Of a stretch of 64,000 nucleotides of DNA, positions 7,437 through 60,303 are shown in pieces. The stretch's first letter is position 1, and each line of letters starts with the position of its first letter. Where the stretch lies: contig CAWJFL010000007.1 of assembly GCA_963842185.1 (NCBI GenBank), positions 145,176 through 209,175 of the forward strand, read 5' to 3'. The stretch comes from an uncultured Verrucomicrobiae bacterium. Lineage in GTDB: Bacteria > Verrucomicrobiota > Verrucomicrobiia > Palsa-1439. The notes beneath the pieces were generated by a model. That model was not told where the DNA came from and did no database searches. It saw only the letters and a list, made by a program, of their open reading frames with translations. The position numbers and the translations under genes are program-made.

Positions 7437-8216
7437 TTGGTTGTGCCCGCACCTGGCACACGAACGGGAGTTTATGCGGTTTGCTTGTTCTTTATAGCGG
7501 TAGGGCTGTTGGCAGCCGAGGAAGCGCAGTTGTCATCGGCGGCGACAAATGCAGCCGTCGATGAGTTGCGTGCGCTGGTGAACAACCTGGGTGCCGACAA
7601 CCAGCGTCTCAAGACGGATTTGGAGCAGCGCGAGACGATCATTCGGCTGTTGACGGAGAATCTGGCTGTCGCACGGACCGAGAGCGAGCTGTTCCACAAG
7701 AAGTGGAGCGAGGCGCAACTGCGCGCGCAGACACTCGGCGTTGATTTTGCCGATAACAACGCGGCGCAGACGCAACGACAGTTGGCCGAGAGCGTACGCG
7801 CGTTGTATCTCGCGGACGTTGAGCGGCAACGGTTGGTGGCGCAGGTGCAGCGGCTTATCGAAGCCTTGCAAAAGCCAGGAGACGTCGCGGGTGAATTAGC
7901 CCGTACTAGGGCGCTGTTCGAGGCTGCGGATCGGTCGCTTTCGGGACGTACGACGAACAGCCAGACCCAGGGAGGACTGGGCGCTGCGACGGTGCTCGAT
8001 GTGAACCCGGACCTGCGGCTGGTAGTGTTGAATATCGGCCAGCTTCAGGGAGCGCGAATCGGGATGCCGATGGTGGTGATGCGCGGGGAACACGTTGTGG
8101 CGGAATTGAAAATTGTGGAAGTGCGACAGCGGATTTGCGGCGCGCTGATCGAACAGGTGAAAGAGGGCGTCACGCTAAAGACGGGAGACGTTGCCCGCGT
8201 GGCCAGGAACTCGTAA
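7437..8216 (+). CDS. Hypothetical membrane-anchored coiled-coil protein with a small C-terminal beta-rich domain (not a ribosomal protein)
   Basis: The ORF fills the entire rpsS-rplV gap on the operon strand. It has a non-ATG start (TTG 7437 or GTG 7443, the latter 6 nt after GGGAG). It has an N-terminal hydrophobic anchor VYAVCLFFIAVGLLAA, a long Q/E/R/L-rich helical segment, and a C-terminal module LRLVVLNIGQLQGARIGMPMVV..GDVARV. I recognise no family. Confidence 0.6.
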   Translation: MVVPAPGTRTGVYAVCLFFIAVGLLAAEEAQLSSAATNAAVDELRALVNNLGADNQRLKTDLEQRETIIRLLTENLAVARTESELFHKKWSEAQLRAQTLGVDFADNNAAQTQRQLAESVRALYLADVERQRLVAQVQRLIEALQKPGDVAGELARTRALFEAADRSLSGRTTNSQTQGGLGAATVLDVNPDLRLVVLNIGQLQGARIGMPMVVMRGEHVVAELKIVEVRQRICGALIEQVKEGVTLKTGDVARVARNS

Positions 8217-8231
8217 GTGTACATGTGATTT

Positions 8232-8567
8232 ATGGAAGTGAGAGCGACAACTAAATATGCGCGGATGAGTCCGTACAAGGTGGGCGAAGTGACGCGGCTG
8301 ATCCAGGGTTTGAGCGCATCAAATGCGTTGGAAGTGTTGCGGGCGATTCCGCGGAAGTCGGCCCGAATGATCGAGAAGACGCTGAAATCGGCGATTGCGA
8401 ACGCGACCAACAACGCCAGCCTGGCAGCGGACGCGCTGACAGTGAAGGAAGCGGTGGCCAACGAAGGGCCGCGTCTGAAACGTTGGCAGCCCAAGGCGCG
8501 AGGCAGCGCGGGACCGATTATCAAGCGGACCACACATATTCAGATTGTATTGACGGACGGACAATAA
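8232..8567 (+). CDS. rplV: 50S ribosomal protein L22
   Basis: ARMSPYKVGEVTRLIQG.. and GPRLKRWQPKARGSAGPIIKRTTHI are L22 motifs. Confidence 0.95.
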   Translation: MEVRATTKYARMSPYKVGEVTRLIQGLSASNALEVLRAIPRKSARMIEKTLKSAIANATNNASLAADALTVKEAVANEGPRLKRWQPKARGSAGPIIKRTTHIQIVLTDGQ

Positions 8568-8570
8568 TTT

Positions 8571-9254
8571 ATGGGACAAAAGACGAATCCAATAGGTTTT
8601 CGCGTGTCAGTCACCAAAGACTGGCTGTCGAAGTGGTATGCCGACAAGAAGGACTACGCGACGCTGTTGTTGGAAGACATCAAGATCCGGGAAATCGTAA
8701 AAAAGAAGCTGGCCTCGGCCGCCGTACCGAAAATCGCGATCGAGCGGTATGCGAACCGGGCCCGGATCACCATTTCGACCGCGCGCCCGGGGATTGTCAT
8801 CGGTCGCAAGGGCGCGGAAATCGACAAGTTGAAGGAAGAACTGACCGCGTTGACTGGTAAGGAAGTCTACGTGGATATCGTCGAGGTGAAGACGCCGGAA
8901 ACGGATGCCCAGCTCGTCGCGGAAAACATCGCTCTGCAACTGGAACGCCGGATCAGTTTTCGCCGCGCCATGAAGAAGGCTGTGCAGACCGCCATGGATT
9001 TCGGGGCGCAGGGCATCAAGGTGGCGTGCGGTGGACGGTTGGGAGGCGCCGAACTGGCCCGCCGCGAAAAGTATCGCGTCGGGAAAATCCCGCTGCACAC
9101 GTTGCGCGCGGATATCGATTACGGTTTTGCGGAAGCGCTGACGGTGTACGGGAAGATCGGCGTGAAAGTCTGGGTCTGCAAAGGCGAGCGACCCCTGCGG
9201 CCAGCGGTACAACCCCCGGCAGCGGTGCCCGTTGGTCCGGGCCCGGCGGCGTAG
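8571..9254 (+). CDS. rpsC: 30S ribosomal protein S3
   Basis: [12 protein letters not shown].., a KH-domain [11 protein letters not shown], and [11 protein letters not shown] are canonical S3. Confidence 0.97.
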
Positions 9255-9286: not shown

Positions 9287-9697
9287 ATGGCAATGATGCC
9301 CAGCAGAGTGAAGTATCGGAAATCCCAGCGCGGAAGCCGGACCGGCGTCGCGTGGCGCGGGGCCTCGGTTGCATTTGGGGAATATGGTTTGCAGGCGCTG
9401 GAGCGCGCGTGGGTGACCACGACGCAGATCGAGGCCTGTCGTGTCGCCTTATCGCGCAATATGAAGCGGCGTGGCAAGTTGTGGATCCGGGTGTTTCCGG
9501 ACAAGCCGATCACCAAGCGCCCGCCAGAGACGCGCATGGGCAAAGGCAAAGGTCCACCCGAGACCTGGGTGGTTGTCGTGCGACCGGGAAATGTGCTGTT
9601 TGAACTGGGTGGTGTGACGGAGGTCCTGGCCCGCGAGTCATTTCGGCTGGCGGCGTCGAAGTTGCCAATTGCAACGCGTTTTGTAGCAAGGCGATAG
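9287..9697 (+). CDS. rplP: 50S ribosomal protein L16
   Basis: [22 protein letters not shown] is canonical L16. The true start may be one of the first Met codons. Confidence 0.96.
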
Positions 9698-9705
9698 CGA
9701 ACGAC

Positions 9706-9918
9706 ATGAAAGCCAAAGAAATCCGTGAGTTGACAGATGCAGAGGCGCAGGCCAAACTGCGTGATCTTCGGCAGGAAATGTTTAACCTGCGGCTCCAGCA
9801 GCAAACGGCTCGTCTCGAGCGTCCCAGCCGGATTCGCGAAGTGCGACGGGATATGGCGCGGCTTGAGACCGTATTGAGAGAGCGGCAGCTTCGACCGGCG
9901 ACGACGCCGGCCAAGTGA
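9706..9918 (+). CDS. rpmC: 50S ribosomal protein L29
   Basis: 70 aa with [18 protein letters not shown], in the position after rplP. Confidence 0.93.
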
Positions 9919-10241
9919 TGACGCGAACAGCCGAACAATTTGGATTTATTATGGTGGAGACAGCGACAATCGAAAGCAAGAAGCGGGAATTGGTGGGCGA
10001 AGTTGTTGGCGACAAGATGGAAAAGACCATCGTGGTCGAAGTTGCCCGACGCGTTCGTCATCCCCGCTACCAGAAGGTCATGACGACCTACAAGAAGTTT
10101 TACGCACACGACGAAAAGAGTGAGGCGGGTATGGGGGACAAGGTGCGGATCGTTGAGTCGCGGCCCCTGAGCAAGCTCAAACGCTGGCGGTTGGTCGGCG
10201 TGGTGCAGAAGGCCGCGAGGATCGAGAAGGTCGACGTATGA
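9915..10241 (+). CDS. rpsQ: 30S ribosomal protein S17
   Basis: [48 protein letters not shown] is the S17 core. An alternative ATG at 9951 would give a more typical length. Confidence 0.93.
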
Positions 10242-10603
10242 TTCAGATTCGGACCCATTTGGACGTGGCGGACAATACCGGCGCGCGCGTAGCCTGGGCG
10301 ATCGGCGTTCTGGGACACCAGAAGCGGTATGCGCGGATCGGTGACGTCATCAAGGCGCACGTCAAGGAGGCCTCGCCCGATGGGACCGTAAAAAAGGGCG
10401 AGGTCGTGACCTGTGTGGTGGTGCGGACGAAGTCGCCCTTGCGACGCAACGATGGGTCCTACGTGCGATTCGACAATAACGCCGTGGTGATTATTGACGA
10501 CCAGTTGAATCCGAAAGGGACACGCATTTTCGGTCCCGTGGCGCGTGAGTTGCGTGACAAGAATTTTACAAAAATTATTTCGCTTGCTCCCGAGGTACTC
10601 TAG
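10238..10603 (+). CDS. rplN: 50S ribosomal protein L14
   Basis: [39 protein letters not shown] is canonical L14. Confidence 0.97.
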
Positions 10604-40002: not shown

Positions 40003-41034
<1,032 letters not shown>

Positions 41035-41038
41035 GGAT

Positions 41039-42538
41039 ATGTGGATCTCTCACTTAACTGCGGAGAATGTTCGCTCCTTTCCGGAGGTCGAAGTCGCCTT
41101 CTCACGCCGGATCAACGTTCTCATAGGACAGAACAACTCCGGCAAGTCCACAATCTTGCGGATTCTGCTCGGTTTGCAGGAAAGTCTTCCCGGTCTAGAC
41201 GCTGCCGATCTTCGGAAGGGGGCGGACAAGGGAGGTGCAGCAGTCACGTTCGACCTAGGGAAAACAAGCTTTCAGCCGAATGATCTCCAAGCAGTTACCT
41301 TTGAACTTGCTAACGGCGTAATATCGCAAAAGAAGTTGCTCCACTCTGGGGACCCAGGGCACCCTAATTCTTTTTCGAATCGAGAGCCTAAGAATTTTAT
41401 CTATCCGTTTCTCACCAAGCGGAAGGTTACAGGATTGGATGAGGCAATCAACGAGGACGTTGCTGCGCAAGTCCCTGCCAATTTTCAGCGACTGAACGCG
41501 AAAATCGACCGAGTCTCAAATCCAGATTTCGTACCGGCCAGTGAGATGTACGAGCGGGCCTGCCGAGACATACTTGGTTTTAGGATTACTTCGGCTCAGT
41601 CAGGGAGTGGGAAAAGAGCCGCCTACACGGTGAGAAACTTTGTCAATATCCCTCTCTCTTCAATGGGTGAGGGAGTGATGAATACTCTGGGGCTTGTTGT
41701 GGATCTTTGTGTGGCGGAGGAAAAGCTTTTCTTGGTCGAAGAACCCGAGAACGACATCCATCCACGGGCTCTCAAAGCCCTAATGAAATTCATATGCGAG
41801 AGGGCTGAGAAGAATCAATTCATCATTACCACGCATTCGAACATTGTGGCCAAGTACTTGGGTGCCCAGGCAGACACCAAGTTGTTTCACGTAACCGTCA
41901 GTTACCCAGACCGCGTTCCGACCTCAGAGATCAAGGAGGTAAGCAACTCCTCCGAAGCCCGTCTGGCAATCTTGGAAGACCTAGGCTACGAACTTGGCGA
42001 TTTTGACCTCTGGGAAGGTTGGCTCTTTCTGGAGGAGTCGTCGTCGGAGAAAATTATACGGCAGTATCTAATACCGTGGTTTGCTCCCAGACTGTCTGGC
42101 CGGCTGCGTACGTTCTCCGCACGGAGCCTGAGCGAGGTCGAGCTGAAGTTCGACGACTTTAACAGTCTGTTTGTATTCCTTCACCTGTCTCCTGCTTACA
42201 AGAACAAGGCATGGGTTATCCTCGACGGGGGTCAAGCCGAGGCCGGAGTCGTCAAGAAGCTGCAAGAGACGTATGGCCGTAGCGGTTGGCGGGCGGACCA
42301 GTTTCTCCAATTCACCCAACACGATTTTGAATCGTACTACCCGAAAGGATTTGCAACCGAAATTGCTGACGCCCTCGGCGAGAAAAACGTCGAGGCGAAG
42401 CGCGCGAAGAAAAAGGCTCTCCTCGATAACATCGAGCAGTGGATAGCGAAGAATGAAGAAGCGGCCAAGAAGGAATTCGCCCTATCCGCAGCAGAAGTGA
42501 TTCAAAGGCTTCAGGCAATCGCAAAGGTCATTTCCTAG
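41039..42538 (+). CDS. ABC/OLD-type AAA ATPase with a C-terminal Toprim-like (DUF4435/OLD-like) region, a putative defence-type NTPase
   Basis: Walker [10 protein letters not shown] at residues ~30-38, Walker B/D-loop [13 protein letters not shown] and H-loop ITTHSN. The C-terminal ~190 aa contain [13 protein letters not shown] and [11 protein letters not shown], which resemble Toprim E and D motifs. The region is clearly AT-richer than the flanks. Confidence 0.75.
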
Positions 42539-42539
42539 C

Positions 42540-44837
42540 ATGAAATTCACTTACAACTGGCTGAAACAATACGTCGATGTTGATTGGTCGCCATCGGAAT
42601 TGGCCGACAAACTGACCTTTGCGGGAATTGAAGTGGAAGACATCACAACTGTTGGGGGCGGCCTGCTCCAGCAGGTCGTCGTCTGCCAGGTTCTGTCCAG
42701 CGACAAGCATCCAAACGCGGACAAGCTTTCGGTATGCCGGGTCAGTGACGGCCACGGCGAACGCCAGATCGTGTGCGGCGCGAAGAATTACAAGGTCGGC
42801 GACAAAGTGCCGTTGGCGTTGCCCGGCATAACCATGGCCAACGGGATGACGATCAAGGAGACGAGGCTGCGGGGTGTGGAATCGCAGGGCATGATGTGCT
42901 CAGCCGAAGAGTTGGGCCTTCCGAAAGGCGAAGACGGGTTGCTGATTTTGCCAGTCGACACGGCTGTTGGCATCACGCTTAGCGATGCCCGCGGCGGCAC
43001 CGACACGGTGTTTGACATTGAGGTCACGCCGAACCGGCCCGACTGGCTCAGCGTCATCGGCATTGCGCGCGAGATCAGCGCCCTGACGGGAAATCCGGTG
43101 AAACGTCCGCATGTTGTCGTCCATGAATCCGGCGAAAACATCGGCAAACTCACTTCGGTCACGATTGAGGCACCCGACCTGTGCCCGCGTTACACGGCGC
43201 GCGTCATCCGCGGCGTGAAAATCGGTCCCAGCCCGGCGTGGTTGAAACAGCTTCTGGAAAAAGTCGGGTTACGGCCGGTCAACAATGTGGTGGATGTAAC
43301 CAACTACGTGCTGCTCGAATGCGGGCATCCGTTGCACGCGTTCGATTACAACCGGTTGGCGGAACATCGGATCGTGGTGCGCCGCGCGGCGAAGGGTGAA
43401 AAGCTCCTGGCCATCGACGACAGTGCACATGAGTTGAGCAACGACATGCTGGTGATCGCCGATGCGAACCGCGCGGTGGCGCTGGCGGGCATCATGGGCG
43501 GCAAGGAGAGCGAGATCCACGATGGCACGACGGACGTATTGCTGGAGAGCGCCTGGTTCCTACCGGCGAACGTTCGCAAGACCTCCAAGCAGTGTGGATT
43601 GTCGAGCGATTCGAGTTATCGATTCGAGCGCGGCGCGGACATCGATGGCGTCATCTGGGCGAGCAACCGCGCGGCGCAATTGATCCAACAATTGGCCGGC
43701 GGACAGGTGGCGACCGGGATCATCGACACACTCGCGAAACCGATTGAGAAACGGCGGGTGCGCTGCCGGTATGCCCAGGTGAACCGTCTGTTGGGTATCG
43801 AGGTGCCGTCCGAGACGGTGAAGAAGATTTTCACGGGGCTGGGACTTTCTATGGTCGGCTCGGCGGGAGCCTCGCCCTCCCATGACTTTGTTGAAGCCGA
43901 AGTGCCGACGTTCCGCGTGGATTTGGAACGGGAGGTCGACCTGATCGAGGAGGTGTGTCGCATTTATGGCGTCGAGAAGATACCGGCAAAGAGGCTGCCG
44001 GCAATTGCCGCGGTGTCCGAGTTCGACACGAAATGGGATGCCCTCGCAAAAGTGCGGCGGGTGTTGACCGCGCTGGGATTTCACGAGGCGCAGAACCAGA
44101 CACTGGTGGGCGAGGGCGAGTTGAAGCTGCAGAATCCATTGAGCGCGGATCAACAGGCGTTGCGAGCGAAGCTTGAGCCCGGCTTGTTGGCGAACCTGCG
44201 CACGAACGTCTCAAGACATCAGTTCGACGTGAAACTGTTTGAAATCGGCCGCGTGTTCGCGTCGGATGGGAAAGAATCGTTGCACGTAGCGCTGGCAGTC
44301 ACCGGGCGGCGCCAACCGGATTCCTGGGAGACAGGCACACGGGAGGCGAAGCTGGATTATTATGACGTGAAGGGCGCGCTGGATGAGGTGGGAGACGCAT
44401 TGGGTGTGCCGCCCACGACCGAGATTCGACAGATTTCGCCCATTCAGGCAAAAAAGCTTGACCTGCGTGATGCGGTGTATGTCGCGGAGTTGGAGCTGGG
44501 ATCCTTGCTGGCGGCGCAAACGCATGAAAAGACATTCCGTGAATTGCCCAAGTTTCCCGCCGTGGTGCGCGATATGGCCTTGGTGGTGGATAAGACGGTG
44601 TCACATGCCGAGATCGTGGCGGCCATCGATAAGGGTCGAAATAAAGTCTTGGAACGGGTCGAACTTTTTGATATATATATGGGGAGTTCGATACCGACGG
44701 GAAAGAAATCAATGGCGTACTCGTTGACGTTCCGCGCGGCGGACAGGACGCTGACGGATGCGGAGGTTAACGGGGCGCATGAACAGTTGAAACGTTCGTT
44801 GGTGCAAACGTTGAAGTGTGAGATTCGCGAGAGCTGA
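42540..44837 (+). CDS. pheT: Phenylalanine--tRNA ligase beta subunit
   Basis: [13 protein letters not shown].., the tRNA-binding domain [12 protein letters not shown], and B3/4, B5 and FDX-ACB regions. Confidence 0.96.
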
Positions 44838-45248
44838 TGTACATGAGCAGGGTAATTAAGCGACGACCATTAAAAGTGACTGGAATATTCTTGAATTCGA
44901 TCGGGACAAATGTTACAAGGGAAGCAAGCGGGCGACGATGGTCGCCGATGTTCTTTGCCAAGGCAAGATTTTGGAAATACCCTGCCATGTTCGTAACAAA
45001 CGACACTTCTTTGAGCCAACACCGTCATTGACGGAGCTCGGTGTTCGGTTGTGGATTGCATGCCTTCACTGGAAGCATGAAACAGCCGGCAGAGCCCCCT
45101 ATTAGTAAGGGGTTCAAAGATATCGTTTAGACGGCATTACGGCGGGGTATTTCCGTTTTGGTGCCCAGCCTCGCGGGGCGTTCGGGCTCCTGTCGGTCTA
45201 ACGCCACAGATCACACGCGGCTCAGAATCCGGGGCCAGATTGGTGGTC

Positions 45249-46584
45249 ATGACCGAGAACCTGTTTTCCAACCAATCCCTGAGACCCGCCGCCACGGCGG
45301 AGGCTGGCGACCTCGCCACCGCTCCATTGGCCACCCGAATGCGCCCGCGCACGCTGGAGGAGTTCGTCGGGCAAGGCCACATACTCGGGCAAGGCAAGCT
45401 CCTCTGGCGTGCGATCAAGGCCGACCGCATCAGTTCCATCATCCTCTATGGCCCGCCGGGAACGGGCAAGACATCGCTTGCCCGGGTCATCGCCAACGCC
45501 ACCAAAAGCAAGTTCGAAAGCCTCAGCGGCGTGGAATCGAATGTCGCGGACATCCGTCGCGTCATCGCCACCGCCGCCAATCGTCTGGCCAACACGGGCC
45601 AACGCACGATCCTGTTCATTGACGAGATTCACCGGTTCAACAAATCCCAACAGGACGTGTTGCTACCCGACGTGGAGAACGGGACGATCCGGCTGATCGG
45701 CGCGACAACCCATAACCCGTCTTTCTATATCAACTCACCGCTCGTGTCGCGCTCGCAGATTTTCCAACTCAAACCGCTGACACCGGCCGACATCAAGGAA
45801 TTGATGCGGCGGGCGTTAGCGGACAAAGAACGTGGTCTCGGCGCCAAGAAAATCAAAGTGGACGCCGGCGCACTGGATTTTCTTGCCACGGCGTGTGATG
45901 GCGACGGACGCAAGGCGCTGAACTCCTTGGAAATCGGCGTCCTGACAACCCCGTCGGGACATATCACCAAACAGATTGCCGAGGAATCCATCCAGAAGAA
46001 GGCCGTGGTCTACGACGCGGACGAGGACGAGCATTACGACACGATCTCGGCCTTCATCAAGTCGATGCGCGGCAGCGATCCCGACGCCGCGTTGTACTGG
46101 CTGGCGAAAATGGTGGTTGCCGGGGAAGACCCCCGGTTCATCGCACGACGGATCGTGATCCTGGCCGCGGAAGACATCGGCCTGGCGGACCCGCAGGCGC
46201 TGGTTCTGTCGGTGGCGGCGCATCACGCGGTGGAGTTCATTGGCTGGCCCGAAGGCGAGTTGCCGTTGGCGGAAGCGACGGTCTATTGCGCGACTGCGCC
46301 GAAATCGAATGCCAGCGCGAAAGGGATTTGGAGCGCCAAAGCCGACGTCGAGCAGGGACGAACGCTGGAAATCCCCGCGCACCTCAAAGACACACATTAC
46401 AAGGGCGCGGCCCGGCTTGGCCACGGGGAAGGTTACAAGTACGCCCACGATTTCGAAGGGCACGTTGTCGAACAAGACCACCTGCCCGGAGCATCGCAAG
46501 TATTACGAGCCGGGCGACCAGGGCTTCGAGATCAAGGTCCGCGAACGAATGGACAAATGGAAGCAACTGCTCAAGAAAAAGTAG
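45249..46584 (+). CDS. rarA: Replication-associated recombination protein A (AAA+). It needs a +1 frame change near 46485-46489 to reach its canonical C-terminus
   Basis: PLATRMRPRTLEEFVGQ, GPPGTGKTSLA, FIDEIHRFNKSQQD and GYKYAHDF lie in frame 0. The canonical tail YYEPGDQGFEIKVRERMDKWKQLLKKK* lies in the +1 frame and ends at 46584. As given, frame 0 instead reads through into the next gene, producing the 636-aa ORF. Confidence 0.85.
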
Positions 46585-47150
46585 CGTTGCGGGAACAGAT
46601 GCGCGCGCGCCTGGCCGGGCAGGGCGCGGCCGACGTTCGCGCGAAGAGCGCGGCCATTTGGGAGCGGCTCTCGGTCCTGAAAGAATTCGCAATCGCCCCG
46701 CGGCTGCTGGTGTACGTGTCCACGGGAAACGAAGTGGATACGCAGGGACTGATCCGTCAGTTGCTCGCGATGGGCCGACAGGTATGCGTGCCGCGGTTTG
46801 AAACGGCGACGCAACACTACGCCGCATCCGAGTTGCATGATTTTGATACCGAGTTGACAACAGGCAAATTTGGAATTTTAGAACCGAAACCCGGGGCAGT
46901 ACGACCGGCGGCGCTCGATCAAATTGACGCCGTGCTGGTGCCCGGGTTGGCGTTCGACGAAACGGGAAACCGATTGGGCCGCGGATTGGGTCATTTCGAC
47001 CGCTTGCTGGGACAAACCAGCGGTGTCAAGATTGCGCTGGCCTACGATTTCCAGGTATTGGACGAGGTCCCGGCGGAAGCGCACGACGCCCGCATGGACT
47101 TCATTGTGACGGAAACACGAGTGGTCAACCCCAGGGGTAACCGACAATGA
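46557..47150 (+). CDS. 5-formyltetrahydrofolate cyclo-ligase
   Basis: An internal ATG gives MEATAQEKVALREQMRARL.. (197 aa), with the motifs LVPGLAFDETGNRLGRGLGHFDR and HDARMDFIVTE. Confidence 0.85.
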   Translation: MEATAQEKVALREQMRARLAGQGAADVRAKSAAIWERLSVLKEFAIAPRLLVYVSTGNEVDTQGLIRQLLAMGRQVCVPRFETATQHYAASELHDFDTELTTGKFGILEPKPGAVRPAALDQIDAVLVPGLAFDETGNRLGRGLGHFDRLLGQTSGVKIALAYDFQVLDEVPAEAHDARMDFIVTETRVVNPRGNRQ

Positions 47151-57077: not shown

Positions 57078-58130
57078 GTGCGTCTTGCCATCATTGGCCT
57101 CGTTCACACGCATGTGCGGGATTTCCTTCCGCTGGCGCTCACCAACACAGAGGTGCAGGTCGTCGGCATCGTGGAACCGGATCAAATGCTGGTGGCGCAA
57201 GCCGCCCGGCGTTGGCAGCTCAACACGAATTTGTTTTACGCCAGCTTGGAAGAGCTGCTGGCCAAAACCAATGTGCAAGCGGTGGCCACATTCACCACCA
57301 CGTTCGATCATCGGCGGGTCGTGGAAGCGTGCGCGCCTCGCGGCATACATGTGATGATGGAAAAGCCGTTGGCCGTGAACATGGAGCACGCCCGCGCGAT
57401 GGCCGCGGCCGCCAAAAAGGGCGGCATTCATCTGCTCGTCAATTACGAGACGACCTGGTATCCCGCCAATCAGGCGGCGTACAAATTGGTCGGGGAACAG
57501 CATGCGATCGGCGACTTGCGCAAGCTCGTGGTTCATGACGGACATCAAGGGCCAAAAGAAATTGGCTGTCCGCCGGAATTTTTGCAATGGATTACCGACC
57601 CGGTGCTGAGCGGTGGCGGGGCGTTGACGGATTTTGGCTGTTACGGCGCCGACCTGATAACCTGGCTGATGCACGGCCAGCGGCCGACGTCGGTGTTCGC
57701 GGTTACCCAGCACATCCAGCCCGATGTCTATCCGAAGGTGGACGATGAAGCGACGATTGTGGTGACGTATCCCAAGGCCCAGGGAATCATCCAGGCGTCC
57801 TGGAATTGGCCGTACAACCGAAAGGACATGGAGATTTACGGTCAGACCGGGTACGTGCTGGTGCCGCGGAGAGATTTGTTGCGCGTGTTGAAGGGAGACC
57901 AGCTTGAGAAGGAAACTCAGACGACCGTCGCGCCGTTGACCGGCCCGGAGGCCGATCCGATCTCTTATTTGGCAGCGGTTGTGCGCGGGGAGATACAACC
58001 CACCGGCGATCTTTCGTCGCTGGACGTGAACATGACCGTGATGGAAATTCTCGACGCCGCCCGCGAGTCCGCGGCGACGGGAAAACGGATTGATCTACCC
58101 GTGGACACTGTCGAAACGAAGCAGAATTAG
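57078..58130 (+). CDS. Gfo/Idh/MocA-family NAD(P)-dependent oxidoreductase
   Basis: The Rossmann start VRLAIIGLVHTH.., MMEKPLA and a typical C-terminal alpha/beta domain. The GTG at 57078 lies 10 nt after GGAGG. A possible signal peptide lies upstream in a different frame (see findings). Confidence 0.85.
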   Translation: MRLAIIGLVHTHVRDFLPLALTNTEVQVVGIVEPDQMLVAQAARRWQLNTNLFYASLEELLAKTNVQAVATFTTTFDHRRVVEACAPRGIHVMMEKPLAVNMEHARAMAAAAKKGGIHLLVNYETTWYPANQAAYKLVGEQHAIGDLRKLVVHDGHQGPKEIGCPPEFLQWITDPVLSGGGALTDFGCYGADLITWLMHGQRPTSVFAVTQHIQPDVYPKVDDEATIVVTYPKAQGIIQASWNWPYNRKDMEIYGQTGYVLVPRRDLLRVLKGDQLEKETQTTVAPLTGPEADPISYLAAVVRGEIQPTGDLSSLDVNMTVMEILDAARESAATGKRIDLPVDTVETKQN

Positions 58131-58250
58131 GAGCGGGAGCATGGACGTAACGCAAACAGGGCGTTAAGCAGGCGATGGCCGAAGTTGCAGCGCGGCGCAG
58201 TCGTACCGGGAGACTTGCCGGAGAAAGTTCGAAGGACTACCGCGTTTTTG

Positions 58251-59204
58251 CTATTGAAGCTTGCTAAGTGACTTCGCGTTCAAATCCAATTGCTGATAGT
58301 AGACCGGTACGCGAAGCGTTTTCCTTAAAGTGGTGAGGTAACGGCCTGCTTCACTGGTAAGAGGGCTTTCGGAAACGACGATCAACTTTTCTGCAACGTT
58401 GCCGGGTGTCCAGTACGCGTACTCAACAAGTTGGCCAATTGCATCGCGCAAGCATGTTCTAATGCATGAGTCCGACTTGATCTCGTAATATGTGTTCTTG
58501 CCTCTGCGGAGGACGACGACATCTATGCGGCCACCTGTACCAGTAGGAACTTCTGTCCCAACGGAGTTCTTTCCATACCGTCCACAAAGTTTCTCGTACA
58601 ACGCCCTTTGGAGTTTGTTCTCGCGGAGCAGGATCGTTTTTATTTCCGTCTTCGTTTGCGCTTTCGCTGATTCACGCTTTGGGCGACACCCTGGCCTGAA
58701 TGCAATTCCAGGCTCTTGCGGAAGATGGGCCTCTTTCCCAGCCAGCCAGATACCTTCGTCGCCAAGAAGAAATTGAAGCTTTGGATTACGCTTAGCGATC
58801 ATACCTAGCAAACGCCTTGCGACTTTCTTATCGGCCAATAAAGATTTGGGCCAGCCGGGAAAGGGTTTAGTTTTCCACCACTTGTCCAAGATCGTATCGC
58901 TGTGGATGTCAGCTAATGAAATTGGTGAAGCCAGCCAAACTAAAGGCTTAAACTCACAATTGTGCCAACTGCTGTTGTTCTCTCGCTCAGCAGGTCCCCG
59001 AACAACCCCCAGTCCAACCACCGCTCTGGTTGTCCCACCGAACCAGAAAAGATAAAAGTCTCCCCTCTTTGCCGTCTTCTTGCATGTCCACTTTCCCTTG
59101 CGGTTCTTGCATTTTCTCTGAAAACGAACGAGCCGGTTACCCGGCTTGCCCGGATCGTCAACCAGAGTCGGCGCGAAAACAATATCCCTTTTTGATTCTG
59201 TCAT
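58251..59204 (-). CDS. Two-domain protein: N-terminal PUA-like (EVE/ASCH-type) domain plus C-terminal PD-(D/E)xK nuclease-like domain
   Basis: N-terminal pattern KRGDFYLFWFGGTTRAVVGLGVV..FKPLVWLASPISLADI. C-terminal pattern GTEVP..GRIDVVVL..YYEIKSD..AIGQLVEY, i.e. E...D...ExK...Q. This is a domain assignment by eye only. The region is AT-richer than its surroundings. Confidence 0.6.
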   Translation of the reverse strand: MTESKRDIVFAPTLVDDPGKPGNRLVRFQRKCKNRKGKWTCKKTAKRGDFYLFWFGGTTRAVVGLGVVRGPAERENNSSWHNCEFKPLVWLASPISLADIHSDTILDKWWKTKPFPGWPKSLLADKKVARRLLGMIAKRNPKLQFLLGDEGIWLAGKEAHLPQEPGIAFRPGCRPKRESAKAQTKTEIKTILLRENKLQRALYEKLCGRYGKNSVGTEVPTGTGGRIDVVVLRRGKNTYYEIKSDSCIRTCLRDAIGQLVEYAYWTPGNVAEKLIVVSESPLTSEAGRYLTTLRKTLRVPVYYQQLDLNAKSLSKLQ

Positions 59205-60217
59205 TCGCAGTCCCTCAGGCTAGAGATTTTCCTTACCAACGTTTTCCAGCGGGGATCACGGCGCAGACTCCGCAAGTCAGAATCTCGCTGCATGTGTGCG
59301 GCATTGCGAAATCCGTGGACAATCGCCAACTCTAAATTTGCAAAAGCTGCTTCGGTCTTGCGCTCCAAGGCATCCAGGCAAGCCAAGCAGTAATACGTCC
59401 AGCCGTATGTTGAATTAAGGCGCAGCGCCTTTTGAAAATAAGGCCGGGCTTGCTTGTTTTGCTTGAGCCGAGTCAGGGTAACGCCAAGATCGTACCATGC
59501 GTAAGAGCATCGTGGATTGAGTTTCGTTGCTCGCAGGAGAACCTCGACCGCCTCAGCCTTGCGCTTCGTCTCCATCAAAATCGATCCGACCAAGTGGACG
59601 ACCTCTTCCGACTTTGGGGTGAGCAATTCAGCGGCACGGGCAAACGACAAGGCCGTGTCCATGCGTTTCGCCCGGTAGTTAATTCGGCCAAGGTTGTAAA
59701 GGATATTGATGGCGGTTCTCTGTGCTGGCGCTAGAACCTTCGCGGCTTCTTTTGAGCGGCCAAGTTCGTCCTGACACAAGGCGAGATTTGTCATTGAAGA
59801 CAGGTGCAAATCTGAGGAGGCCCGTCTCAGTTGGGGATCGCTGGCAATGATGGCGGCGAACTCCGTACTGGCTTCGTCGTGGTGTCCCAAATGGAAAAGC
59901 GCCAAACCCAAATCATAATGGAAGAGGTTTGTCTTTGGGGAAAGTCCGACAGCTTTGCGGAGGGCGGCGACTGCTTCCTCGAAGCGTTCCAGTGCGAGAA
60001 GGATGTCGCCGTAGTTGTACCAAGCGAGTGCTGATTCGGGATTACTTTTGATCGCCTTATCGTAGAGATCGAGCGCCGCTGGCAAGTCGCCACTCCTTTC
60101 GGAGAGCATTCCGGCGTCGAGGAAGAAGTCGTGCAGTTCGTGAATGTCGCCACCGCTGCGCACGCGCTCTTCCGATTCGTGGCCGTTCCTATCGCCGTTT
60201 CCCGGATACGTGCTCAT
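59201..60217 (-). CDS. Tetratricopeptide-repeat protein (about 8 TPR units), translationally coupled to the downstream nuclease-like gene
   Basis: Repeated A..Y/W..G.....A...F..AL...P patterns throughout (e.g. ALAWYNYGDILLALERFEEAVAALRKAVGLSP). The stop overlaps the next start (ATGA at 59201-59204). Confidence 0.8.
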   Translation of the reverse strand: MSTYPGNGDRNGHESEERVRSGGDIHELHDFFLDAGMLSERSGDLPAALDLYDKAIKSNPESALAWYNYGDILLALERFEEAVAALRKAVGLSPKTNLFHYDLGLALFHLGHHDEASTEFAAIIASDPQLRRASSDLHLSSMTNLALCQDELGRSKEAAKVLAPAQRTAINILYNLGRINYRAKRMDTALSFARAAELLTPKSEEVVHLVGSILMETKRKAEAVEVLLRATKLNPRCSYAWYDLGVTLTRLKQNKQARPYFQKALRLNSTYGWTYYCLACLDALERKTEAAFANLELAIVHGFRNAAHMQRDSDLRSLRRDPRWKTLVRKISSLRDCE

Positions 60218-60303
60218 TTGGTTTCGCTCGCCTTTTGGAGGTTAATGCTGGCGAGTCTACCTCCGACAGAGACTCCTCGACAAGCTCGGAATGAAGCACA
60301 AGG

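Follow-up and report, generated by a model that had tools for sequence, protein, structure and literature searches.

The locus described here raises the question of how a complete gene came to lie between pheS and pheT, the genes for the alpha and beta subunits of phenylalanyl-tRNA synthetase (PheRS), and of what its product may do. Within a 64-kb stretch of DNA from an uncultured Verrucomicrobiae bacterium (hereafter, the window), an intact open reading frame (ORF) of 499 codons on the + strand (41039–42538) separates the two synthetase genes. A first-pass annotation had read this ORF as a foreign OLD/ABC-type ATPase gene with a Toprim-like tail, inserted into an essential operon. We compared the junction with those of relatives, all of which are represented by metagenome-assembled genomes (MAGs) or metagenome contigs (numbered with the prefix L), and compared the predicted protein with known OLD nucleases. 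The reading that we favour, to which we give a probability of about 60%, is that the gene is a mobile intra-operon cargo that encodes an OLD-like, single-gene defence candidate, a function that we infer from the homology of its head and the resemblance of its tail, and not from guilt by association.

A gene of atypical composition between pheS and pheT

The ORF and its spacing were as first annotated, with 4 nt between the pheS stop codon and the ATPase start (TAG-ggat-ATG) and 1 nt between the ATPase stop and the pheT start (TAG-c-ATG). The local G+C counts given at that stage were likewise exact (25 of 60 nt in the ORF against 39 of 60 in pheS and 39 of 60 in pheT). Over whole genes, the G+C fraction (GC) was 0.517 for the ORF, 0.616 for pheS and 0.587 for pheT, and GC at third codon positions (GC3) was 0.598 as compared with 0.72–0.80 in eight neighbouring genes; segments of 1500 nt this AT-rich account for 0.9% of those within the 64 kb. 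A similar arrangement is found at two other loci, where the spacer between pheS and the ATPase gene is AATT (L090) or ACTACT (L001), and where the ATPase stop codon is again followed by 1 nt and a pheT-type start (TAG C GTG in L090, TGA C ATG in L001).

An assembly artefact was ruled out, as the order pheS, ATPase gene, pheT is shown independently by L002, L090 and L001/L091. L002 is an independent assembly of the same organism, with the same arrangement, a 100% identical pheS and an ATPase gene that is split by frameshifts. At least one indel error is probable in the window, in mgsA, although the ATPase ORF is complete and its homologues align collinearly with it.

Different cargo at the same junction in close relatives

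A comparison of pheS–pheT junctions, proposed with the first-pass annotation, was made on 80 verrucomicrobial pheS loci, in each of which the distance from pheS to pheT was measured. In the outgroup (Chthoniobacterales/Udaeobacter), every locus in which pheT was found had a gap of −1 to ~300 nt with no gene between. The close clade, defined by a pheS at least 78% identical to that of the window, comprised 26 loci. Thirteen of these junctions were occupied, by at least nine unrelated types of cargo, nine were empty or short (−1 to 62 nt, including the scar in L005 described below), and four were left unclassified. The outgroup and most close relatives lack the ATPase gene. Empty junctions in the close clade were seen in L007, L009, L012, L019, L022 and L026; the junction sequence was TAGAAAGATG in L007 and L012, and a TGATG overlap in L009 and L019.

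The window pheS is 96–98% identical to those of L004–L007. In L004, the closest relative (98% identical), the junction (8038–8751) is occupied by a 237-aa NucS_C-like gene with a GC of 0.50, the product of which scores ~5e-9 against PDC-S18 and PDC-S11, two candidates for single-gene defence in PADLOC, and is probably of the PD-(D/E)xK type. The spacers and the pheS stop codon of L004 also differ from those of the window, and because gene, spacers and stop codon all differ, the cargo must have been replaced wholesale. A rubrerythrin gene fills the junction throughout one subclade (L015 8042–8542, L023 6715–7215, L020 7998–8543), joined in L020 by a gene for a GDSL hydrolase, which occurs alone in L018. 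Other occupants include a GT2 glycosyltransferase gene on the opposite strand (L008), an IS200-like Y1 transposase gene (L021), a PEP-CTERM protein gene (L024), an unknown gene together with a HicB gene (L017), and the ATPase gene together with a DUF2806 gene (L001). Among this cargo, the ATPase gene, the NucS-like gene and the HicB-like genes are defence-like. In the close-clade genomes L014, L016 and L025 (and L013), no pheT was found within 3.5–7 kb downstream of pheS; unrelated genes follow there, some of them on the opposite strand; the operon is therefore either split in these loci or carries a much larger insert.

In L005 (pheS 97% identical), pheS and pheT are separated by a 32-nt spacer that reads GAAT ATGTGGATCACTCACCTAGCTTCATAG C before the pheT ATG. 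Of the 20 nt after GAAT, 17 are identical to the 5′ end of the window ATPase gene, which stands equally far from its pheS stop (P = 3e-8); at the end of the spacer, 7 of ~9 nt agree with the 3′ end of the gene and its stop codon. The scar is an in-frame internal deletion that leaves the mini-ORF MWITHLAS and a stop, with both junction geometries kept. Because the spacer matches both ends of the gene, the ancestor of L005 must have carried the ATPase gene and lost it cleanly, which speaks for a gene that is foreign and can be dispensed with. In L010, a 62-nt spacer (8024–8085) contains a 17-codon mini-ORF that starts 2 nt past the pheS stop (ATGCGGACACCTGAAGAG...TTTAA), and may be another deletion scar left by a cargo gene.

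The view that the gene is foreign to its operon is supported by its presence or absence in close relatives, the scar, its low GC3, and a synonymous divergence (dS) below that of the flanking pheT (see below). The idea that its loss would be costly did not survive: L005 lost the gene by a clean in-frame deletion that kept both junctions, and L004 replaced it. Similarly, while a foreign gene does lie within the operon, it does not represent a one-off insertion and is instead one occupant among several. The pheS–pheT junction is a lineage-specific cargo hotspot in a clade of uncultured peat and soil Verrucomicrobiae.

Cargo and flanking genes differ in their histories

In a host tree built from PheS and PheT, that is, from the flanking genes themselves, the window clustered with L004 and L005 (~95% identity), and L007, whose junction is empty, was sister to this group. 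The other ATPase carrier in this tree, L001, fell in a different subclade, where it adjoins the empty L009 and L019; carriers of the ATPase gene are mixed in among sisters with an empty junction. When metagenomes were scanned with the family alignment, 80 loci were returned, 2 of which are flanked by pheS and pheT (L090, and L091 from the same genome as L001), the other 78 being unlinked to them.

Between the window and L090, the ATPases share 85% amino acid identity and the PheT proteins, compared over residues 1–308, share 76%. The L090 PheT is as distant from that of the window as is the PheT of the L001 host, the ATPase of which is ~60% identical. The dS between window and L090 was 0.54 for the ATPase gene, about a third of the 1.66, a value near saturation, found for the adjacent pheT. 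Given this difference in dS, the ATPase cargo of the window and of L090 must have separated far more recently than its flanks. At the same time, the ATPases of the window, L090 and L001 formed one clade in a neighbour-joining distance tree (98 of 100 bootstraps). From these data we infer a single founding capture at the junction, followed by descent, lateral exchange between species and repeated loss.

The tight packing and common orientation of the gene with pheS and pheT, together with the fact that the three junction copies make up one old clade at 60% identity, might suggest that it is an ancient native member of pheST with a housekeeping role linked to PheRS. This was ruled out, with at most a very slight chance left to it, by the absence of the gene from the outgroup and most close relatives, by its loss in L005 and replacement in L004 with no apparent harm to the operon, by its atypical GC3, and by a cargo dS a third of that of the flank. 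The 78 unlinked loci of the metagenome scan also argue against it.

Stacked cargo and the route of exchange

In three loci, a second cargo is stacked behind a pheT 5′ stub. In L001, the order is pheS, the ATPase gene, a 78-nt copy of the pheT 5′ end, 18 nt, a copy of the last 26 nt of pheS (24 of 26 identical) with its stop codon, the DUF2806 gene (second cargo, 9433–10502), and an intact pheT. In L090 and L017, a pheT 5′ stub is followed by HicB-like antitoxin genes (1611–2261 and 8588–9054, respectively) and then by pheT; a 59-aa ORF overlaps the L090 HicB-like cargo by 4 nt. The pheT 5′ duplications at the second inserts of L001, L017 and L090 are 57–78 nt long, and in L006 a pheS fragment follows the insert. 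The stacked inserts of L001, L090 and L017 are tandem modules of the form pheS3′-cargo-pheT5′.

Because the stacked cargo is bounded by duplicated stubs of the pheS 3′ and pheT 5′ ends, its structure suggests that cargo is exchanged by homologous recombination through those ends. The comparison of loci shows that the cassette, captured once at the junction, has since been inherited, transferred laterally to the identical site in other species, replaced and deleted. By the proposed route, pheS3′-cargo-pheT5′ segments would be exchanged through the conserved ends of the two genes, and an occasional illegitimate join would yield tandem modules in place of a replacement.

The flanks of the ORF contained no meaningful direct or inverted repeats and no attC-like sites, which ruled out transposon or integron boundaries, and no integrase or transposase was found in the neighbourhood of the gene in the window or in the syntenic loci inspected. 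Entry by a dedicated site-specific element, with a recombinase supplied in trans and an att-like site in the 5′ end of pheT, is nevertheless an alternative that could explain some of these features, although we consider it unlikely. The pheT duplications that flank the second inserts resemble att-site duplications, the L021 gap holds an IS200-like Y1 transposase gene, and ORF-precise junctions are awkward for random insertion. Conversely, the cargo boundaries in the window and in syntenic loci lack an integrase, inverted repeats and attC-like structures, the stub in L001, in which pheT nt 78 is joined to a copied pheS 3′ end, bears the mark of a donor pheS-cargo-pheT segment and not of an element end, and the replacement in L004 took in the spacers and the pheS stop codon. 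These points favour exchange of cargo by homologous recombination through the flanking genes.

Predicted expression and purifying selection

From the pheS start to the pheT stop, neither a sigma-70-like promoter (the only type for which the scan was made) nor a + strand terminator-like hairpin was found; the first such hairpin is downstream of pheT (Table 1). Because the spacers are only 4 and 1 nt long, the ATPase gene most likely shares the transcript that starts at the pheS promoter, its translation following that of pheS and preceding that of pheT, and translation of pheT probably depends on termination-reinitiation. That transcription passes through the ATPase gene, as first annotated, is in this respect the most likely prediction.

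A 14-nt inverted repeat (42520–42533 and 42610–42623, 13 of 14 complementary, 76 nt apart) pairs pheT codons 24–28 with the last ATPase codons, which contain the AAGG that precedes the pheT start. It is not obviously conserved in L090 or L001, and could be a chance match or an RNA hairpin that affects pheT initiation.

The ratio of nonsynonymous to synonymous divergence (dN/dS) against L090 was 0.15 overall, 0.14 in the head and 0.18 in the tail. Purifying selection therefore acts on the ATPase protein, which has kept every residue that is invariant in its family.

An OLD-type ATPase head

All of the motifs named in the first-pass annotation could be located in the protein: GQNNSGKST (residues 30–38), the Walker B region (229–242), IITTHSN (262–268), the segment at 328–338, and VILDGG (393–398). 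Its assignment of the head to OLD/AAA_21-type ABC ATPases is upheld by the agreement of Pfam, PADLOC and hhalign with the invariant motif residues. The head matched the Pfam families AAA_15 (4e-24) and AAA_21 (9e-21); hhalign aligned residues 1–309 with the P2 Old family at a probability of 97.7%; and Foldseek matched the head to Rad50, Thermus scotoductus (Ts) OLD, GajA and PtuA at E ~1e-13. Full-length Foldseek alignments were obtained with Ts OLD (6p74), GajA and the retron Eco8 OLD. The P-loop Lys, Walker B Glu, D-loop His and H-loop His of OLD ABC ATPases are all present, and the spacing of K36, E234/E235, H241 and H266 equals that of the Ts OLD ATPase residues K34, E276, H283 and H310 (PMC7049728).

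The PADLOC and Foldseek checks that had been proposed gave head-level PADLOC matches only, and weak matches of the tail fold to OLD C-terminal regions. The PADLOC matches were to AriA, NsnB, GajA, MAD3, AbiLi and PtuA models, none of them full-length.

A conserved tail with weak resemblance to OLD nuclease regions

AlphaFold modelled the protein with a predicted local distance difference test score (pLDDT) of 90.5 over its full length and 89.3 for the tail alone. The order of elements in the tail model is beta1 (327–331), a helix, beta2, helices, beta3 (391–395), a helix, beta4 (422–424) and a helical bundle. The tail is conserved like the head, with E332, E333, S334, E337, D396-x-G398, F430-E431-x-Y433-x-P435 and K458 invariant. 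Several of these residues have possible counterparts in the OLD catalytic set, which includes the metal-A triad E377/D431/D433 of Ts OLD, and in which K562 of the Burkholderia pseudomallei (Bp) enzyme corresponds to Ts R487 (PMC7049728); these correspondences were drawn from order and spacing only. The E333-x3-E337 spacing equals the E-x3-D/E of OLD proteins (EGKTE in P2, EGYGD in Ts OLD, EGPSE in GajA). After beta4, F430 and E431 are invariant and H428 is nearly so; D429 is invariant in the 17-sequence tail alignment only. The candidates for the metal-B and basic residues (E337, D429-x-E431 and K458) are conserved, and were placed by the same order and spacing.

When the tail alone was searched against 350,542 PDB chains with Foldseek, the top four matches were OLD C-terminal regions (6njx, 6nk8, 6njv; probability 0.90–0.98), and the OLD C-terminal matches spanned 215–223 aligned columns, taking in both the Toprim core and the helical domain. 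In a separate viral library, a RloB-like protein (rank 2, probability 0.44) and a DnaG Toprim were among the top matches to the tail, at probabilities of 0.44–0.51, which is below significance. One of 17 family tails gave a faint GajA profile match (E 0.002). These structural comparisons suggest that the modelled tail most resembles, if weakly, the Toprim-plus-helical nuclease region of OLD nucleases.

A closed family of stand-alone genes

The protein belongs to a family of more than 1000 full-length homologues of ~500 aa at ~50% identity, found in cyanobacteria, Verrucomicrobia, Chloroflexota and Bacteroidota. The family is closed, in that the tail domain is confined to ~600 clusters, nearly all with the same ~500-aa architecture (mostly 494–525 aa), and the PADLOC and Pfam models used recognise it as a generic AAA ATPase only. 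At 499 aa, the window protein is at the lower edge of the 500–600 aa that serve as the length cut-off for Class 1 OLD (PMC12392090).

The first-pass description of a stand-alone gene held up: no conserved partner was found in 8 contexts inspected or among 118 flanking ORFs from 60 loci, and on this sample a conserved partner gene was ruled out. Housekeeping genes (alaS, ilvD, mfd and leuS among them) are the neighbours met most often; a few neighbours are Fic, type I methyltransferase, ThsB, HEC-01, DRT or transposase genes. Because the median intergenic gaps around family genes are 184 nt upstream and 168 nt downstream, ORF-precise packing is special to the pheS–pheT site. Carriage by phages or plasmids was ruled out by absence from phage records and a single plasmid occurrence.

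Some settings involve other aminoacyl-tRNA synthetase genes. Family members lie ~180 nt after alaS in L094, L100 and L103 (one of them a Scytonema MAG) and 181 nt after leuS in L088, and in L084 thrS-infC is ~2 kb upstream. Synthetase contexts (alaS, leuS, pheST) number three among ~60, against a chance expectation of ~0.6, the independence of the loci being uncertain. As a speculative extension, the family may be drawn to synthetase loci because the protein acts on tRNA. On a 7.25-Mb cyanobacterial contig (L003, 8001–12313), the gene downstream of a 58%-identical member, a UvrA-like one of 1004 aa, overlaps it by 4 nt, and a gene for an ADP-ribosyltransferase (Tse2-like) is upstream; this was the only context seen with a possible partner gene.

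Nuclease, or a tail with another role

A number of observations weigh against the favoured reading. The tail-fold matches were below the usual significance (E 0.02–0.05, TM 0.37–0.42, rmsd ~10 Å). No Toprim, OLD-like_TOPRIM or DUF4435 domain was detected in 17 family tails with Pfam, with matches considered at E ≤ 10, or with PADLOC, and a PDB profile search with the tail found nothing. An hhalign comparison of the tail with an OLD alignment gave a probability of 0.07%; the alignment used was that of the P2-Old family. The positive controls worked, with P2 Old matching PF20469 at 1e-17 and the P2-type profile aligning through the Toprim of both Ts OLD and GajA. The metal-A triad is incomplete: E333 and D396 are invariant and placed as expected, but Gly398, which is invariant too, takes the place of the second Asp of the DxD. 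On the genomic side, the junction also holds non-defence cargo (rubrerythrin, GDSL hydrolase, GT2, PEP-CTERM protein and DUF2806 genes), and because rubrerythrin, GDSL hydrolase and glycosyltransferase genes are found there, the site is not purely a defence hotspot. Defence genes are a small minority of the 118 neighbours of family genes, and 50,697 phage records contain no member of the family, which was found on a single plasmid (Nostoc). Finally, it is the stubs that suggest the recombination route, and read-through is predicted from a sigma-70-type scan.

Further searches of the tail were in keeping with these results. PF20469 (OLD-like_TOPRIM), the profile-recognisable C-terminal Toprim of OLD proteins, did not match it, NCBIfam likewise gave no identification, and a HMMER profile of the tail, run against 1.84 billion representatives, returned 596 matches; the best 150 of these, which were listed, belonged to the family itself and gave no bridge to OLD Toprim.

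The strongest competing explanation accepts the gene as mobile cargo but takes the tail not to be a nuclease: it would be a family-specific sensor, oligomerisation or binding domain on a Rossmann-like scaffold, and the protein an ATPase switch in an SMC/RecF-like DNA transaction, an addiction or toxin module, or a regulator, and not necessarily anti-phage. This would fit a tail that lacks profile-level Toprim similarity when true OLD classes cross-detect, an invariant DxG in place of DxD, sub-significant fold matches, and a family that is chromosomal, absent from phages, known from one plasmid and mostly set among housekeeping genes. We think it less probable than an OLD-like function, at somewhat better than one chance in four. 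The four best of all PDB chains for the tail are OLD C-terminal regions, invariant acids lie exactly after beta1 (with the E-x3-E of OLD) and beta3, the head is specifically of OLD/AAA_15 type with a D-loop His, and the tail is under purifying selection as strong as that on the head.

The earlier label of a Toprim-like tail is therefore best kept in part: both of its motifs are invariant family signatures and OLD regions are the top tail-fold matches, while the scores are weak and profile detection fails. Its remark that a clean DxD is not evident can be made more precise, since the DxD is replaced by an invariant DxG. Taken together, the sequence and model comparisons indicate an OLD-like architecture and, probably, an OLD-like mechanism; we read the protein as an OLD-like defence candidate, which is not a proven member of OLD and forms a distinct family; with no profile-level Toprim and a DxG tail, it was therefore not filed as an OLD member. 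The assignment as a Toprim nuclease with a role in defence is plausible but unproven.

Comparison with known systems

The closest likeness is to the Class 1 OLD proteins (P2 Old, Ts OLD, and Vc OLD of Vibrio cholerae), two of which, P2 Old and the nickase Vc OLD, act against phages (PMC12392090). As in these, a single gene of ~500–600 aa encodes an AAA_15/AAA_21 ABC head with all four of the motif residues named above for OLD ABC ATPases; beta1 is followed by a Glu in E-x3-acid spacing and beta3 by an Asp, and the fold aligns over its full length with 6p74. The window gene is likewise isolated, with no helicase, reverse transcriptase or second subunit. It differs in the absence of the PF20469 OLD-like_TOPRIM domain, which P2 Old has at 1e-17, in the invariant DxG of its family, and in its C-terminal helical bundle, which Ts OLD does not have (PMC7049728). 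The C-terminal regions of Class 2 OLD (B. pseudomallei 6NK8, Xanthomonas campestris 6NJX/6NJV) and GajA are the best structural matches to the tail, and K458 is a possible counterpart of Bp K562; these matches score weakly (E 0.02–0.05, TM ~0.4).

Other defence systems differ in their gene content. For Gabija, a UvrD/GajB-like helicase would be expected downstream, whereas pheT follows after 1 nt and no such helicase was seen in the contexts sampled. The head scores against AbiLi and AriA models, and the fusion of an ATPase with a Toprim-like effector, recall AbiL/RloA-RloB and PARIS (AriA-AriB) in concept, but DUF4435 is absent from the protein and its neighbours, there is no second gene, and the RloB match has a probability of 0.44. 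The AriA models matched (373 and 304 positions) align with AAA_15/AAA_21 stretches and so look generic; their PADLOC matches are to the ATPase head only, in two stretches, the best at residues 181–270 and 203–268. Septu differs in that its HNH partner PtuB is not found next to the gene, similarity to PtuA being restricted to the head.

As a genomic site, the junction resembles core defence hotspots such as cDHS1 of Pseudomonas aeruginosa (PMC10250203), where a fixed site by conserved core genes holds variable, lower-GC cargo, cargo and host histories disagree, and transfer via the conserved flanks has been proposed. Close relatives likewise have variable cargo or none between pheS and pheT, and cargo and host trees are incongruent. 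Unlike the window site, cDHS1 lies near pheT-ihfA, between merR and a DUF4011 gene, and holds 1–224 kb of autonomous operons (PMC10250203), whereas the site in the window is inside an operon between the genes for two subunits, with cargo of 0.5–2.6 kb that is promoterless, ORF-precise and only partly defence-like. Integron cassettes, too, are promoterless, co-oriented single genes that depend on an upstream promoter and can be stacked in tandem; here, however, there is no integrase and there are no attC/attI-like inverted repeats, and the boundaries are host-gene stubs. More generally, the recombinase and the terminal repeats or attC-like sites that mark integron cassettes, insertion sequences and integrative elements were not found. 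Cargo between pheS and pheT was not reported in the literature searched, which yielded only an unrelated cloning note and cDHS1, outside the operon.

Features of the locus and other observations in the window

Table 1. Coordinates of the ATPase gene, its protein motifs and its flanks in the window.
Feature	Position	Strand	Basis or remark
pheS (PheRS alpha)	40003..41034	+	Pfam tRNA-synt_2d 1e-98, Phe_tRNA-synt_N; left flank, probable left homology arm
Spacer ggat, 4 nt	41035..41038	+	pheS stop TAG to ATPase ATG
Cargo gene, 499-aa solitary ABC-type ATPase with family-specific C-terminal domain	41039..42538	+	ORF, homologues, dN/dS, AlphaFold
ATPase head, residues 1–299, OLD/AAA_15/AAA_21 type	41039..41935	+	Pfam, hhalign, Foldseek
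Walker A / P-loop GQNNSGKST (K36)	41126..41152	+	G30, N32, N33, G35, K36 invariant in family alignment
ABC-signature-like SMGEGV	41660..41677	+	M209, G210, E211, G212 invariant
Walker B and D-loop (E234/E235, H241)	41723..41764	+	Invariant; spacing as Ts OLD E276, H283
H-loop IITTHSN (H266)	41822..41842	+	T265, H266, S267 invariant; corresponds to Ts OLD H310
C-terminal domain, residues 300–499, four-strand beta-alpha core and helical bundle	41936..42535	+	Candidate divergent OLD-type Toprim
E332-E333-S-S-S-E337 after beta1	42032..42049	+	Candidate Toprim Glu and metal-B acid (E-x3-E)
D396-G397-G398 after beta3	42224..42232	+	At Toprim DxD position; invariant Gly for second Asp
D429-F-E431 after beta4	42323..42331	+	Candidate equivalent of OLD metal-B S/T-x-E, from order and spacing
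K458, helical bundle	42410..42412	+	Invariant; candidate equivalent of Bp OLD K562 / Ts R487
Junction TAG-c-ATG	42536..42542	+	ATPase stop, 1 nt, pheT start; termination-reinitiation geometry
pheT (PheRS beta)	42540..44837	+	Pfam tRNA_bind, B3_4, B5, tRNA_synthFbeta, FDX-ACB; right flank, probable right homology arm
First + strand terminator-like hairpin	44931..44946	+	Downstream of pheT

Downstream of pheT, a 636-aa ORF (45240–47150) consists of mgsA fused in frame to a 5-formyltetrahydrofolate cyclo-ligase gene, with the last ~33 residues of mgsA encoded in another frame and the shift near 46456. L005, L007 and L001 have both as separate, intact genes, and in the long-read assemblies L002 and L004 they are broken as well; the fusion is probably an assembly indel error and not real. 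One further region (57700–60300), the only one in the window to equal the ATPase gene in AT richness, contains a TPR-repeat protein gene (59204–60217, − strand) and a 317-aa ORF with no Pfam match (58254–59204, − strand), and may be another acquired segment.

Discussion

As a working model, the pheS promoter would drive the ATPase gene, with its translation in series with pheS and pheT. In the protein, ATP-dependent dimerisation of the head would gate a metal-dependent nuclease or nickase, which phage infection would switch on. The putative nuclease tail has E-x3-E, Asp and D-x-E following beta1, beta3 and beta4, respectively, together with the invariant Lys, and Gly for the second Asp of the DxD. 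A bolder version, which we offer only tentatively and hold to be less likely than not, is that the junction is an accessory-gene site of a distinct kind: a promoterless, ORF-precise cassette slot within the operon of an essential two-subunit enzyme, with the ends of essential genes as homology arms, and that its founding occupant is an undescribed, OLD-like DxG single-gene immune nuclease. Equally tentative is the corollary that cargo is swapped, stacked and excised in frame across species, with expression of the nuclease slaved to PheRS.

If confirmed, the locus would be an accessory and defence hotspot inside an essential operon, between the subunits of one enzyme, of a kind not found reported in the literature searched. 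Such a site would guarantee constitutive expression and would offer ready-made homology arms in every relative, and loss of its cargo would be constrained, with only junction-preserving deletions like the L005 scar tolerated. It would also provide a testable model for the spread of promoterless single genes between species without mobile-element machinery. The protein family is large (~600 clusters at 50% identity) and abundant in cyanobacteria and Verrucomicrobia. Should the DxG tail prove to be an active nuclease, the family would extend the OLD superfamily and show what the second Toprim Asp is dispensable for; if it is not, the family would carry a new effector or sensor domain on an OLD-type motor.

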